Shown here: positions 2,942 to 13,855 of the stretch, one piece after another | Layout of the letters: each line of letters begins with the position of its first letter | Numbering within the stretch: the stretch's first letter is position 1 | Origin: a virus | Lineage: Duplodnaviria > Heunggongvirae > Uroviricota > Caudoviricetes | DNA: 18,787 nt | Direction: 5' to 3' (one strand) | IMG/VR virus record: IMGVR_UViG_2778261532_000018 | Coordinates: 1 to 18,787 of that record | Notes under the pieces: generated by a model | What the model was told of the DNA's origin: nothing | Database searches by the model: none | The model's input: only the letters and a program-made list of their open reading frames with translations | Position numbers and translations under genes: made by a program

Positions 2942-3017
2942 TGGTGCTGGTTAACGGACTTGAACCGCTACCCATTCGCTTACAAGGCGACGGCTCTACC
3001 ATTGGAGCTAAACCAGC
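2942..3017 (-). tRNA. tRNA, predicted anticodon UGU (Thr)
   Basis: Manual cloverleaf on minus strand: acceptor GCTGGTT/AACCAGC 7/7 bp, D stem GCTC/GAGC, anticodon stem 4/5 bp with loop CTTGTAA, T arm AGCGG-TTCAAGT-CCGTT, discriminator A, encoded CCA. Confidence 0.6.
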
Positions 3018-3022
3018 ATATT

Positions 3023-3097
3023 TGGCGGGACAGCGTGGACTCGAACCACGATAAGAAGGTTAACAGCCTTCCGTAATGACCTTTATACGACTGACCC
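3023..3097 (-). tRNA. tRNA-like gene, predicted anticodon GUU (Asn-like); weaker fold
   Basis: Minus strand: anticodon arm GAAGG-CTGTTAA-CCTTC and T arm CGTGG-TTCGAGT-CCACG with loops identical to E. coli tRNA-Asn as I recall it; discriminator G, encoded CCA; one U-U mismatch each in acceptor and D stems; 4-nt variable loop. Confidence 0.45.
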
Positions 3098-11472: not shown

Positions 11473-11853
11473 ATGAATGATCTTGATAAGAAAAAGTACG
11501 ACCAAGTTATTGATTCTGTGAACTTCGCCCTTAGATCGTTGTCAGAGTTATTCGAAGCCCATGGAATGCATGGGATGTATGATCTAACGAATCCAAGCCT
11601 TGATGAGCTAAAATTAGTGTTTACAAGGATGAAAAACGGTGTTGACTCTATTGCTCAAAGCTTTGAGCACATGGTAGAGACAGCAAAGGATATGGATGCC
11701 GCAAGTGCAAGCATAAATGTTATGAACATCAAACAAGGATTGATGTATGCTGAATCACTATTGCTTGCTGTAGAGAAATTAGACTATGATAAATGTGTGG
11801 AAGCAAATACGCAGATAAAAACCCACGATCTTCCACCAACCCAATGGCCTTAA
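11473..11853 (+). CDS. Hypothetical protein in the rexAB slot downstream of cI (unrecognised, AT-rich)
   Basis: 126-aa ORF, no hydrophobic segment, acidic; AAAAGG 11 nt upstream of ATG; codon usage markedly more AT-rich than neighbouring lambda-type genes. Confidence 0.6.
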   Translation: MNDLDKKKYDQVIDSVNFALRSLSELFEAHGMHGMYDLTNPSLDELKLVFTRMKNGVDSIAQSFEHMVETAKDMDAASASINVMNIKQGLMYAESLLLAVEKLDYDKCVEANTQIKTHDLPPTQWP

Positions 11854-12783: not shown

Positions 12784-13200
12784 ATGGATTTAAGTAAATT
12801 AGAAAGCTCCTTGGAAGCATCAGTAAAAAATTTTATATCAGTAATTGATGAAAAAACTGAAGATATTAAGAAAGCAACTATTGCAGAACTTATTCAAACA
12901 AGAGCCAGTACATTTGATCATCTTCCTGATGATGTCCGGTCAGCGGCAATTCATTTATATGTTACAGCGCTAAGCAATATTGAACCCCCAATTGATGAAG
13001 AATCAAGAGATATTCAGAAAAAACGGTTTGAGATGTTAGCCAGCAACATTATCGCTGGTTTCACACAACTCTTAACAAAAGAGCCTGCCAGTGAGGCTGT
13101 TCGCCAGCAGGCTCAGGTAATGATTAATCAGGCAGAAACTATTTCACGTGAGCGAAAAGCATTTGATAAATCGGTTTCTGAACTTCCAACACCTCAATAG
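12784..13200 (+). CDS. Hypothetical protein immediately downstream of N (unrecognised, AT-rich)
   Basis: 138-aa product from MDLSKLESSLEASVKNFISVIDEKTEDIKK...; ATG 2 nt after the N stop with GAGGT upstream; no hydrophobic segment. Confidence 0.55.
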   Translation: MDLSKLESSLEASVKNFISVIDEKTEDIKKATIAELIQTRASTFDHLPDDVRSAAIHLYVTALSNIEPPIDEESRDIQKKRFEMLASNIIAGFTQLLTKEPASEAVRQQAQVMINQAETISRERKAFDKSVSELPTPQ

Positions 13201-13393
13201 CAGCCGCTGAACCTTCCTTCTCAACAAACTTAATAACTTCATCAAGATGCTTTTTTGCATGTGATGATTGCTCAGGCGGCATAGCAGAAACTATCGAAAT
13301 GATTGCTTGCTGGAGCGCGAGGTTTTCAGTGCTCAGTTTTGAAACTCTGTCGTTTAAATCCTCAATGACTTTAACAAGAGATACATCTGACAT
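13139..13393 (-). CDS. Hypothetical protein, convergent with and overlapping the 3' end of the 12784-13200 gene
   Basis: 84-aa product from MSDVSLVKVIEDLNDRVSKLSTENLALQQ...; strong AAGGAG SD 5 nt upstream of the ATG at 13393. Confidence 0.45.
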   Translation of the reverse strand: MSDVSLVKVIEDLNDRVSKLSTENLALQQAIISIVSAMPPEQSSHAKKHLDEVIKFVEKEGSAAAIEVLEVQKPIYQMLFAHVK

Positions 13394-13404
13394 GTGAACT
13401 CCTT

Positions 13405-13454
13405 CTTTTGACTGTGGAAACAACAGTCTACCCATTTCCTTTGACTGTGGAAAG
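13405..13454. repeat. Two direct repeats with identical 14-bp core TTTGACTGTGGAAA (13407-13420 and 13440-13453)
   Basis: Read directly; 33-bp period; the proximal copy lies immediately upstream of the SD of the 13139-13393 gene. Confidence 0.8.
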
Positions 13455-13513
13455 TGAAGGAACCACCGAGCCTGATGTGGTTAAAAGACAGGCATACGAA
13501 TAAACACTGCACT

Positions 13514-13541
13514 GTGTATTCATTCCAACGAGTGAATACAC
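13514..13541. repeat. Perfect 9-bp inverted repeat GTGTATTCA / TGAATACAC with 10-nt spacer
   Basis: Read directly from sequence; no flanking T-run. Confidence 0.75.
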
Positions 13542-13603
13542 GGAGCAATGTCGCTCGTAACTAAACAGGAGCCGACTTGTTCTGATTATTGGAAATCTTC
13601 TTT

Positions 13604-13629
13604 GCCCTCCAGTGTGAGGGCTTTTTTAT
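13604..13629 (+). terminator. Intrinsic terminator upstream of cIII (tL-type)
   Basis: GCCCTC-CAGTGT-GAGGGC followed by TTTTTTA. Confidence 0.65.
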
Positions 13630-13690
13630 ATGCATACCAATAACGCTTCACTCGAGGCGTTTTTCGTTATGTATAAATAAGGAGCACACC

Positions 13691-13855
13691 ATGCAATATG
13701 CCATTGCAGGGTGGCCTGTTGCTGGCTGCCCTTCCGAATCTTTACTTGAACGAATCACCCGTAAATTACGTGACGGATGGAAACGCCTTATCGACATACT
13801 TAATCAGCCAGGAGTCCCAAAAAATGGATCAAACACTTATGGCTATCCAGACTAA
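13691..13855 (+). CDS. cIII: CIII (FtsH inhibitor)
   Basis: 54-aa product [54 protein letters not shown] matches lambda CIII; AAGGAG SD. Confidence 0.95.
   Translation: MQYAIAGWPVAGCPSESLLERITRKLRDGWKRLIDILNQPGVPKNGSNTYGYPD

Follow-up and report, generated by a model that had tools for sequence, protein, structure and literature searches.

The window, by which we mean the whole 18,787-nt stretch of DNA that was analysed, is a lambdoid prophage whose genes run in the order repressor, N, ORF, reversed small gene, cIII, kil, gam, bet, exo. The reversed small gene, here called the cargo gene, belongs to a cassette that is reverse-oriented in the pL operon, between N and ral/cIII, a position that matches lambda, HK620, and P22. 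Two copies of TTTGACTGTGGAAA are present on the plus strand, at positions 13407-13420 and 13440-13453, with a 33-bp period. Further upstream of the cargo gene, GTGTATTCA (13514-13522) and TGAATACAC (13533-13541) form an exact inverted repeat, 10 nt apart and 121 nt from the cargo ATG. Read along the cargo gene, the features of the minus strand are:

13440..13453, minus strand: distal repeat, lying over the -35 region TTTCCA (13453 down to 13448); placed by P22 homology.
13425..13430, minus strand: predicted -10 element TAGACT; aligns with the annotated P22 -10 element TAAACT.
13407..13420, minus strand: proximal repeat, TTTCCACAGTCAAA on the gene strand; predicted first nucleotides of the mRNA, by P22 homology.
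13399..13404, minus strand: Shine-Dalgarno sequence AAGGAG of the cargo gene; read from the sequence, inside the conserved module.
13139..13393, minus strand: cargo gene, encoding an 84-aa protein of unknown function, reversed within the pL operon; a hypothetical protein in the identical prophage of E. coli PEC41.
13082..13098, minus strand: terminator-like hairpin about 40 nt past the cargo stop codon, AGCCTCACTGGCAGGCT then CTTTTGTT; from the consensus scan only.

A first-pass annotation of the window had reported the 14-mer twice at a 33-bp period with no further copy, the proximal copy beside the Shine-Dalgarno sequence of the gene at 13139-13393, and a perfect 9-bp inverted repeat with a 10-nt spacer, and had taken both features to be non-coding and regulatory; our analysis bears this out. 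In particular, both copies of the 14-mer are exact, they are the only two matches in the whole window with up to 2 mismatches allowed, and 2 nt separate the proximal copy from CTCCTT (13399-13404), the complement of AAGGAG. The expected count of the 14-mer is 0.17, and at least two copies occurred in 0/200 dinucleotide shuffles of the window.

Both repeats lie within a 95-bp module (13400-13494) that recurs with 100% identity in further E. coli prophages, where it precedes different reversed genes, and that is homologous to the DNA 5′ of sieB in P22, lambda, and HK620 (hkaP in HK620). Within the module, positions 13460-13494 are 100% identical to lambda over 35 nt, and this block, which P22 and HK620 also carry, aligns with the P22 sas sequence. 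In lambda, HK620, and P22, the layout is the block followed by two direct repeats, ACCCCTACAG, with a 34-bp period, bracketing the -10 element. Lack of conservation in related prophages, which the first-pass annotation had named as evidence against its reading, is thus not what we find: the repeats are strongly conserved there. A search of isolated phage genomes with the cargo region returned one partial match, Salmonella phage MS2 LVA, in the repeat region only.

The closest known system is the sieB promoter of P22 and lambda with its antisense RNA, sas (Ranade & Poteete 1993, as cited in PMC12197685 and PMC13397905). The window cassette shares with it the reverse orientation between N and ral/cIII in the pL operon, the homologous block, and the order distal repeat, -10 element, proximal repeat, Shine-Dalgarno sequence, ATG. 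It differs in the repeat core (TTTCCACAGTCAAA at 33 bp rather than ACCCCTACAG at 34 bp), in the loop of the second predicted hairpin of the antisense RNA (9 nt rather than a GGGG tetraloop), and in the cargo, an unrelated 84-aa protein that has no internal Esc-type start. The cargo protein has no BLASTP similarity to P22 or lambda SieB or to HK620 HkaP, and the cargo protein and its neighbour gave nothing meaningful in Pfam, PHROGs, and PADLOC. By sequence homology, therefore, the cassette is of the sieB type and the gene itself is not sieB; since the gene lacks an internal Esc-type start, that portion of the sas mechanism known as the "translational switch" is inapplicable to it.

The terminator scan matched tL2a, tL2b, and the minus-strand hairpin after the cargo gene, and no other site. 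Together, the predicted promoter and the hairpin at 13082..13098 appear to complete a promoter-gene-terminator unit of the moron type. Like lambdoid morons, the unit is a single reversed gene with its own promoter and a terminator-like hairpin, placed between conserved early genes and variable in its cargo; unlike them, it has a promoter that is a conserved, exchangeable module, associated with at least 66 cargo genes and carrying a built-in antisense element.

The consensus promoter scan called no promoter at the repeats on either strand. The combination TTTCCA-17 bp-TAGACT matches consensus at 8/12 positions, below the scan threshold of at least 9/12 at 16-18 bp spacing, and therefore received no call. 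The case for a promoter comes from P22, for which records NC_002371 and BK000583 annotate the sieB promoter and a mapped RNA start: by record annotation, the mapped start coincides with base 1 of the homologous proximal copy, and the distal copy spans -34 to -25. By this homology, the cargo mRNA in the window is predicted to start at about 13415-13421. The final T of the -10 element is invariant in 42/42 aligned cassettes (alignment A1), and relatives have TATAAT, TATATT, or TAAAAT at the window's -10 position. The earlier suggestion of sigma-factor recognition thus holds in part: the distal copy lies over the -35 region, as judged by homology to P22 sieB, and TTGACT on the plus strand, considered as a -35 element, is rejected since it has no -10 partner at 16-18 bp. 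Likenesses to sigma-E, sigma-32, and sigma-28 motifs, noted by eye, were dropped; they concern at most one repeat type.

We considered whether promoter DNA by itself could account for the repeats, with the distal copy serving as the -35 element, the proximal copy as the initial transcribed sequence, both shaped by RNA polymerase (by way of promoter escape, the choice of start site, or reiterative transcription over the C or T run, for instance), and the antisense RNA incidental. The fixed position of the copies relative to the -10 element in all types would fit such an account, as would the coincidence of the P22 start with the proximal copy and the fact that every repeat type opens with a pyrimidine run followed by ACA (CCCC-N-ACA or TTTCC-ACA). 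Against it, no known polymerase contact demands the same sequence at -35 and at +1 to +12, the -35 matches are poor (2-4 of 6 across types), and the structured block and the co-varying left arm of the second antisense hairpin (see below) would go unexplained. We regard this account as quite unlikely. Direct repeats at a promoter with a weak -35 element are also a feature of the lambda CII-dependent promoters (TTGC-N6-TTGC flanking -35); those repeats, however, are 4 bp long, 10 bp apart, both upstream of the -10 element, and bind CII, whereas the cassette has repeats of 10-14 bp at a distance of 33-34 bp, one of which is transcribed.

An anchor scan revealed 120 loci built in this way, with 66 distinct proteins encoded downstream. 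Across cassette loci the repeats fall into several sequence types (A to D), with periods of 33-35 bp among the 42 aligned cassettes of alignment A1. Type A occurs in lambda, P22, and HK620. Type B, the type of the window, occurs as a pair with an exact 33-bp period in 24 species genomes across Enterobacterales, and an identical type B cassette is present in phages with 38%-identical repressors and differing N proteins. The two copies co-vary across types A-D: copies within a locus are identical at 10.6/13 positions, compared with 6.9 for permuted partners, and 0/10,000 permutations reach the observed value. In a scan anchored on the distal copy alone, the proximal copy is exact in 58/66 cassettes and is the most conserved stretch nearby, with an entropy of 0.10 bit (spacer, 0.77; next 12 nt, 1.02; block, 1.37). 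Identity of the copies is not absolute, since one hybrid locus (L061) has a distal copy of type A and a proximal copy of type D, and several type C loci have 1-2 mismatches between copies. One further locus, L202, is a single-copy deletion derivative.

The matching of the copies could also be a relic of a tandem duplication of 33-34 bp comprising 5′ UTR and start codon, kept alike by duplication or conversion and serving at most as short homologies for module exchange. Similarity does extend past the core in P22 (GAGAAATCGGAT vs GAGAATCGCCGAT) and in locus L004 (GGAAATGGGTAGAC vs GGAAATGCTATGTC), in which the -10 element aligns with the start-codon region, and the single-copy and hybrid loci are of the kind such a history would leave. 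The distal units are, however, homologous across all types, so that any duplication is older than the divergence of the types, and the cores stay matched within each type while spacers and UTRs diverge. Homologous conversion would generally be inefficient over cores of only 10-14 bp. A relic of this kind is, in our estimate, very improbable as the explanation.

The plus strand of the cassette carries a second set of features, which belong to a predicted antisense RNA and are as follows:

13389..13515, plus strand: predicted sas-like antisense RNA; from alignment with the 127-nt P22 "P22A-sas" RNA.
13410-13415 with 13423-13428, plus-strand RNA: hairpin 1, GACUGU (in the proximal repeat) with ACAGUC; from pairing.
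13435-13439 with 13449-13453, plus-strand RNA: hairpin 2, UUUCC with GGAAA, loop UUUGACUGU; from covariation.
13461..13493, plus strand: conserved block with two interleaved helices, forming the 3′ part of the sas-like RNA; near-identical in lambda, P22, and HK620.
13461-13466 with 13477-13482, plus strand: helix beta, AACCAC with GTGGTT.
13470-13474 with 13489-13493, plus strand: helix alpha, GCCTG with CAGGC.

P22A-sas is a 127-nt small RNA of P22 that was seen by small-RNA sequencing (sequence in Table 2 of PMC13397905). We find that on the P22 cassette it reaches from codon 2 of sieB to some 25 nt past the block; it is antisense to the whole P22 cassette, including both repeats and the block, and spans exactly the module that is homologous to the window cassette. 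The plus strand of the cassette very probably encodes a sas-like antisense RNA. The one predicted for the window would overlap the cargo mRNA by about 30 nt, a stretch that takes in the Shine-Dalgarno sequence and AUG. A sas promoter was sought inside P22 sieB: inspection by eye gave no convincing -35/-10 pair, and a scan of the gene gave a single match, on the opposite strand.

The sas-like region is thermodynamically ordinary, with z ~ -1 on either strand in the window and a mean z ~ -1 over 42 cassettes; because these scores are unremarkable on both strands, the structural case rests on covariation rather than on stability. In hairpin 2, the distal repeat forms the loop and the 3′ arm on the plus-strand RNA. 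Across types A, C, and D, 93.4% of alignment cells are paired when hairpin 2 is read on the antisense strand, compared with 85.9% on the sense strand, and changes on both sides occur in 7/11 pairs on the antisense strand. Its covariation score is 0.508 vs 0.288 for shuffled controls (0/500 reach the observed value), and sliding the partners leaves 38-60% paired. In type B variants from Photorhabdus, in which GGAAA is changed to GAAAA, the pair is kept solely as U-G on the antisense strand. For hairpin 1 the wobble evidence is mixed, with several type B variants that are G-T on the gene strand and hence A-C mismatches in the antisense RNA, and a consensus structure could not be defined, since the arm positions differ between types. 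The predicted exposure of the repeat sequence in the two loops is complementary between copies in types A and C and blurred in type B, the type of the window.

In the block, loci recovered by their repeats alone give 97% pairing and 3 compensatory pairs for helix alpha, and 76.6% pairing and 2 compensatory pairs for helix beta. Arm order and loop lengths suggest that helices alpha and beta may form a pseudoknot. An Rfam search over 13389-13551 gave nothing at the gathering threshold and nothing credible to E 5; the only Rfam family detected, Lambda_thermo, lies at 13678-13736.

The first-pass annotation had also taken the repeats as possible regulator sites, and the covariation bears on this directly. 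If a phage or host DNA-binding regulator bound both repeats around the -10 element to repress or activate the promoter, identical sites flanking the -10 element would be in the classical position for a repressor, the discrete sequence types would resemble specificity classes, and a sequence-specific reader would leave just such strong conservation of primary sequence, beyond pairing, as type B shows in many genera. No candidate protein emerges, however. The same type occurs in heteroimmune phages (type A in lambda, P22, and HK620; type B in phages with different N proteins and repressors as divergent as those given above), and the genes downstream of identical cassettes are unrelated, which leaves no linked protein able to co-vary with repeat type. 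One host protein, in turn, cannot account for four sequence types in the same host species, and periods of 33-34 bp, which amount to 3.1-3.2 helical turns, place the sites out of phase on the helix face. Finally, the arms around the distal copy vary in a manner that preserves base pairs, with the left arm of this palindrome keeping Watson-Crick or G-U pairing, which is the signature expected for an RNA rather than for a protein site. We therefore judge binding of a regulator to the repeats to be unlikely. A DnaA box, TTATCCACA, was also considered and rejected: CTTTCCACA and GTTTCCACA fit it at 7/9 positions, and types A, C, and D are dissimilar. The remaining suggestion of the first-pass annotation, a structured leader, is correct to the extent that the proximal copy lies in the mRNA, as judged from the P22 start; the two copies occur jointly only in the antisense RNA.

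The reading that we consider probable is that the direct repeats are part of a portable expression cassette of the P22/lambda sieB type that carries information on both strands, and that the inverted repeat is a separate element. We prefer to read the cassette as a switch that allows expression in the lysogen and is silenced in lytic growth. On the minus strand, a weak sigma-70-type promoter, with -10 element TAGACT and -35 element TTTCCA inside the distal copy, would drive a prophage-expressed accessory gene, here that of the 84-aa protein, from an mRNA start that coincides with the proximal copy or lies no more than a few bases from it. When pL is active, either upon induction or in a superinfecting phage, the cassette would be read in the opposite direction as a sas-like antisense RNA of about 105-127 nt, which would cover the cargo start codon, the Shine-Dalgarno sequence, and the mRNA 5′ end and would presumably shut off translation. 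The predicted sas-like RNA would comprise one hairpin capped by each repeat copy, followed by the two-helix block. The preferred reason for the identity of the copies is that both would be complementary to one target, the single-stranded 5′ end of the cargo mRNA; the two hairpins would then show complementary parts of the anti-5′-end sequence, providing recognition through two loops. Full complementarity to the target is already a property of any cis-antisense RNA, so that a second recognition copy is not obviously needed.

A mechanistic analogy is provided by RNA-IN and RNA-OUT of IS10. There, as predicted for the window, the cis-antisense overlap is about 30-36 nt and covers the 5′ end of the target, the ribosome binding site, and the AUG, and a single-stranded mRNA 5′ end is complementary to an antisense hairpin loop, as proposed here. 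RNA-OUT differs in that its sequence is unrelated and in that it has one recognition hairpin and its own promoter, whereas the cassette has two hairpins of the same sequence and an antisense RNA that is probably carved from the pL transcript.

More tentatively, and with the doubt weighing against it, the cassette family as a whole could be a mobile lysogen-on, lytic-off switch placed before any accessory or defence gene, with types A-D as specificity groups and the antisense RNA as a novel RNA class. Such a switch may be used by lambdoid phages across Enterobacterales. A superinfecting phage of the same type would silence the cargo of the resident prophage through its own sas-like RNA, and such silencing would drive the repeats to diversify and force the copies to change together. 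The two hairpins with split recognition halves, together with the small pseudoknot, would constitute an undescribed class of structured antisense RNA.

If these readings are true, a 95-bp module suffices for expression of any gene in the prophage and for its silencing once the pL operon fires, which would account for the presence of toxic exclusion or abortive-infection genes in antisense orientation within an essential early operon. The locus would be a hot spot at which small genes, at least 66 different ones and most of them without a known function, are swapped behind one control element, and a convenient place to seek new defence and counter-defence genes. The need for two separated identical copies would be an unusually clean case of natural covariation, open to compensatory mutation, and repeat type could determine which phages are able to switch off one another's prophage genes.

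The inverted repeat lies in another segment, which is 97.8% identical to the lambda ral-ea10 intergenic region, and the direct repeats lie in the module at 13400-13494, so the two features are not one unit. A bare perfect 9-bp inverted repeat is not unusual here, with 7 other pairs listed in the window (palindromes included). This one, however, extends to 22-nt arms (13504-13525 and 13530-13551) that are 82% complementary around a CAAC loop, and 20/22 stem positions are paired when two U-G pairs on the plus strand are counted. The hairpin has a predicted stability of -24.9 kcal/mol (z = -6.3), which is equalled in 0/200 shuffles. Two features are present here on the plus strand:

13504..13551, plus strand: 22-bp imperfect hairpin, a candidate processing site on the pL transcript; from folding.
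13543..13628, plus strand: homologue of LPR1/PreS, ending at tL2a (stem 13604-13621 plus T run); from identity to lambda.

LPR1 is a small RNA of lambda (described in bioRxiv 10.1101/2024.10.31.621285), and tL2A is annotated in HK620. The upper part of the hairpin is a 14-bp helix (13512-13525 with 13530-13543), the last base of which is the LPR1 5′ end as given by the cloning primers in the supplement of that preprint; the upstream hairpin is not discussed in the portions of the preprint drawn on here. Since the LPR1/PreS homologue has its 5′ end where the stem ends, the hairpin is probably a processing site. Most likely, it directs cleavage of the RNase III kind that would release the LPR1/PreS homologue from the pL transcript, and the first-pass view of it as an upstream site of the minus-strand gene is accordingly replaced by that of a hairpin on the pL transcript abutting a small RNA.

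That the inverted repeat is instead a protein operator or a transcription terminator appears improbable. The perfect symmetry of its 9-bp arms and the nearly equal stability of the hairpin on both strands would be in keeping with such a site. A T run, however, is absent 3′ of the stem on either strand and the scan made no call, so the hairpin is not an intrinsic terminator; a 22-bp symmetry with U-G pairs on the plus strand is long for an operator; the end of the stem coincides with the reported LPR1 5′ end; and in lambda the site is deep within the pL operon, flanked by ral and ea10, with no promoter near it. Hairpin substitutions in homologues comprise 3 that preserve a pair and 3 that break one, with no double compensation. 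The element at 13543-13628 resembles lambda LPR1/PreS in being about 98% identical to it, in ending at tL2a, and in having the inverted repeat immediately 5′; it differs in setting, the lambda copy lying between ral and ea10, both of which are absent from the window, where the element directly follows the cassette.

The direct repeats in front of the minus-strand cargo gene (13139-13393, 84 aa) are confined to that site. In particular, TTTGACTGTGGAAA occurs in the whole window at 13407-13420 (proximal copy) and 13440-13453 (distal copy) only, even with two mismatches tolerated, and dinucleotide shuffles give a mean of 0.17 matches and never two, confirming the first-pass annotation, which had reported two copies and none elsewhere. 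It had also placed the proximal copy beside the Shine-Dalgarno sequence of the gene; the copy and the complement of that sequence are indeed 2 bases apart. The repeats sit in a 95-bp segment (13400-13494) that is 100% identical in other E. coli chromosomes, where it precedes different reversed small genes (60 aa, 54 aa). Salmonella phage MS2 LVA has a version with 82% identity, which keeps both repeat cores and the 33-bp period but whose intervening spacer has diverged. From 13460 on, the window sequence matches lambda and HK620.

The window is a lambdoid prophage, and its early leftward (pL) operon runs on the plus strand, in the order repressor, N, ORF 12784-13200, then cIII, kil, gam, bet, and exo; the cIII, kil, and gam products are recognisable directly in the window sequence. 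The cargo gene is the sole minus-strand gene within this early-operon stretch, and 13130-13470 (341 bases queried) is 100% identical to E. coli PEC41. The cargo protein shows no relation to SieB. The cargo gene and ORF 12784-13200, whose 138-aa product is without known family, overlap convergently by 62 nt (13139-13200), and a terminator-like hairpin lies on the minus strand inside the ORF (13098-13082). The ORF product is 93% identical to that of the neighbouring gene in one viral-contig locus (L004) over the N-terminal 96 aa and then diverges; judged from this alignment, the point of divergence is the second recombination boundary of the slot that holds the cargo gene.

In lambda, HK620, and P22, the corresponding site lies upstream of sieB (hkaP in HK620), reverse-oriented there too. 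All three share a block, AACCAC-N10-GTGGTT overlapping GCCTG...CAGGC (13461-13493 in the window), followed by two direct repeats. The repeats are ACCCCTACAG, 34 bp apart, in all three phages, whereas those of the window are TTTGACTGTGGAAA at 33 bp. P22 database records annotate a sieB promoter and an experimentally mapped sieB RNA start: the −10 element (TAAACT) lies between the repeats, transcription begins with the first A of the proximal repeat, and positions −34 to −25 fall in the distal one. SieB translation is reportedly blocked by an antisense RNA, sas, according to reviews of the 1993 work of Ranade and Poteete. Homology with P22 predicts the following elements in the window:

13430-13425, minus strand: predicted −10 element, TAGACT
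inside the distal copy, minus strand: predicted −35 region, TTTCCA
about 13389-13515, plus strand: predicted equivalent of the sas-like RNA, from alignment with P22 sas

The cargo mRNA should accordingly start at about 13415-13421. The predicted promoter has 8 of 12 consensus matches and is not called by a consensus promoter scan. On the other strand, small-RNA sequencing of P22 infection in 2026 yielded a 127-nt RNA, "P22A-sas", of given sequence (PMC13397905). Mapped to P22, it runs from 2 bases inside the sieB coding sequence to approximately 25 nt past the block, spanning the anti-Shine-Dalgarno region, proximal repeat, −10 element, distal repeat, and block, in that order, and overlapping sieB mRNA by 36 nt. 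The P22 promoter and the placement of P22A-sas together define the module as a promoter on one strand and an antisense-RNA body on the other. The window repeats very probably belong to this sieB-type promoter/sas cassette family, and it is somewhat probable that an antisense RNA silences the cargo gene in this phage.

Anchored on the block, a search through viral contigs yielded at least 120 loci, with at least 66 distinct proteins encoded downstream, including both kinds of SieB, HkaP-like proteins, and many 40-100 aa proteins without known family. Of the 120 loci, 104 (57 unique sequences) show the same order, read on the gene strand: block, distal repeat, A-rich spacer, −10 element, 5-6 nt, proximal repeat, Shine-Dalgarno sequence, and ATG. 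The repeats, with periods of 33-35 bp, fall into four sequence types:

Type A: (T)ACCCCTACAG
Type B, that of the window: TTTCCACAGTCAA(A)
Type C: TCCCCAAC, then AAC, GAC, ATAA, and others
Type D: CCCCCACAA

The 14-mer, sought in other prophages as the first-pass annotation had proposed, is present as an exact type B pair at the 33-bp period in one genome each of 24 species; these range over Proteus, Providencia, Yersinia, Photorhabdus, Serratia, Pantoea, Erwinia, and Enterobacter. The window repeats appear as a sequence variant widespread in Enterobacterales, attached to a new cargo gene.

The two copies within a locus match each other. With coordinates anchored on the invariant last T of the −10 element, they are identical at 10.6 of 13 positions, as against 6.9 for random re-pairing (0 of 10,000 permutations reached 10.6); relatedness inflates this test, but matched differences still recur among the four types and sub-types of C. 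Exceptions are a hybrid locus (L061) and several loci with 1-2 mismatches. In a second scan, anchored on the distal 14-mer alone, 66 matches among the pooled loci are cassettes, and the proximal 12-mer is identical in 58 of these type B cassettes, differing by one base in 6 and by two in 2. Across the 46 unique cassettes from the loci of that scan, per-position entropy rises from 0.10 bit in the proximal copy to 0.77 in the spacer, 1.02 in the 12 nt that follow, and 1.37 in the block. The repeats are therefore the most constrained part of the module. Strongly selected, they are integral to a kind of element that is known but has been little studied, the sieB-type promoter and its sas antisense RNA.

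These comparisons make it unlikely that the repeats are a protein operator, the protein-binding-site reading of the first-pass annotation. Specifically, heteroimmune phages carry the same type (type A in lambda, P22, and HK620); an identical type B module occurs in phages with repressors only 38% identical; the diversity of cargo genes leaves no linked protein that could track repeat type; four sequence types are not readable by one host protein; and a 33-34 bp period is a non-integral number of helical turns. The two units also resemble the products of an ancient tandem duplication, 33-34 bp long, that took in the 5′ UTR and start codon; this accounts for their origin but leaves the continued matching of the cores unexplained. 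An in-frame ATG in the distal unit (13433-13435, minus strand), after AAGGAA, would lengthen the cargo ORF to 98 aa (13139-13435); the predicted start site excludes it from the mRNA, and it looks like a fossil start codon of the duplicated unit.

The preferred reading of copy identity is that both copies would have to remain complementary to the single-stranded 5′ end of the cargo mRNA, a two-site explanation that we hold tentatively. When 42 cassettes were folded as the antisense strand, the nine structures listed each had one hairpin per repeat copy, a U-rich linker between them, and then a block hairpin. In ensembles predicted for types A and C, GGGG, which complements +2 to +5, is exposed in the distal copy, and a stretch complementary to the mRNA bases after these is exposed in the proximal copy; in type B the loop-exposure signal is weak. 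In the window, hairpin 1, at the proximal copy, is predicted to expose GGAAACA and hairpin 2, at the distal copy, UUUGACUGU, jointly complementing UUUCCACAGUCAAA at the predicted mRNA start. Tight repeat conservation is what a need for two matching copies would produce, with a change in either penalised. Against this reading, an antisense RNA made in cis complements its target in full already and has no obvious need of another recognition copy.

Pairing at the distal copy is maintained on the antisense strand. In types A, C, and D, this copy lies within a CCCC-centred palindrome (e.g. GTCGTT-CCCC-AACGAC, TGTA-CCCC-TACA, GTTGTT-CCCC-AACAAC). Its 11-bp helix, counted in antisense orientation on an alignment of 20 distinct sequences of these types, is 93.4% paired, with changes on both sides in 7 pairs and a covariation score of 0.508 versus 0.288 in shuffles (0 of 500); when the partners are slid as a control, pairing falls to 38-60%. 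On the sense strand the helix is 85.9% paired, and at one pair 7 G-U pairs become mismatches. In Photorhabdus variants of type B, GGAAA is replaced by GAAAA, and the pair is kept only in the antisense orientation, as U-G. For hairpin 1, wobble evidence points both ways, and the folding stability of the cassettes is unremarkable (z about −1). In the block, counted on loci found via the repeats alone, helix alpha (GCCTG/CAGGC, GCCGGG/CCCGGC, or GCTGGG/CCCAGC) is 97% paired with 3 compensatory pairs, and the interleaved helix beta is 76.6% paired with 2 compensatory pairs, a value depressed because the Photorhabdus sequences are misaligned by one column. The arms run beta 5′, alpha 5′, beta 3′, alpha 3′ in the antisense RNA, with a short first loop and a last loop of 6-8 nt, a geometry that would suit an H-type pseudoknot in the antisense orientation only.

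Naturally rearranged cassettes (L061; L202; L052, L058, L029, L096) include the hybrid L061 (distal copy type A, proximal copy type D), the single-copy derivative L202 (spacer and −10 element lost), and several loci with CCCCCTTATTTTGTCAGGGGG in place of the proximal copy; these could serve as natural tests of the need for matched copies. Two further families (L036, L015, L026, L065, and others; L013, L018, L126) have the same block, unrelated downstream sequence, and direct repeats with 35-36 bp periods (AACTTAG... and AAATGTAC...), so the two-copy layout may be general beyond types A-D.

The inverted repeat GTGTATTCA-N10-TGAATACAC is exact, as first described (a perfect 9-bp repeat), and is the core of a longer hairpin (13504-13551; 22-nt arms, loop CAAC; −24.9 kcal/mol, z = −6.3). 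The region containing it, 13498-13632, is 97.8% identical to the lambda ral-ea10 intergenic region. A preprint (bioRxiv 10.1101/2024.10.31.621285) describes there a small RNA that depends on Hfq, named LPR1 (PreS in the supplement), approximately 88 nt long with a processed form of 68 nt, ending at the tL2a terminator, produced in the lytic cycle only, and activating dnaN; the cloning and in vitro transcription primers begin at GAGCAATGTCGCTCGTAACT, which is window position 13543.

13604-13621, plus strand: tL2a terminator stem, followed by a T run (terminator scan, HK620 annotation)

This primer-defined start and the terminator place the LPR1 homologue, approximately 98% identical to that of lambda, at 13543-13628 (plus strand). 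Its lambda flanks, ral and ea10, are both absent from the window. The inverted repeat belongs to this neighbouring small-RNA unit; on sequence comparison, the direct repeats and the inverted repeat are two features in two separate modules. By eye, no promoter-like sequence precedes the homologue in the window. In the hairpin, the upper helix of 14 bp ends with base 13543, and a stem of 22 bp that stops where a small RNA cut from a long operon transcript begins suggests, circumstantially, an RNase III-type processing site. Inverted-repeat substitutions in 47 homologues comprise 3 pair-preserving and 3 pair-breaking changes.

Other features of the window are as follows:

13642-13661: tL2b-like terminator
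13678-13736, plus strand: Rfam Lambda_thermo, the cIII thermoregulator element (88.5 bits), overlapping the cIII start at 13691
11652-11669: perfect 18-bp palindrome TGCTCAAAGCTTTGAGCA, inside ORF 11473-11853, downstream of the repressor gene
2945-3017 and 3026-3097, minus strand: two adjacent tRNA genes (Rfam, 58 and 55 bits)

The tRNA genes (2945-3097) fall within the late or Q-proximal region of this prophage.
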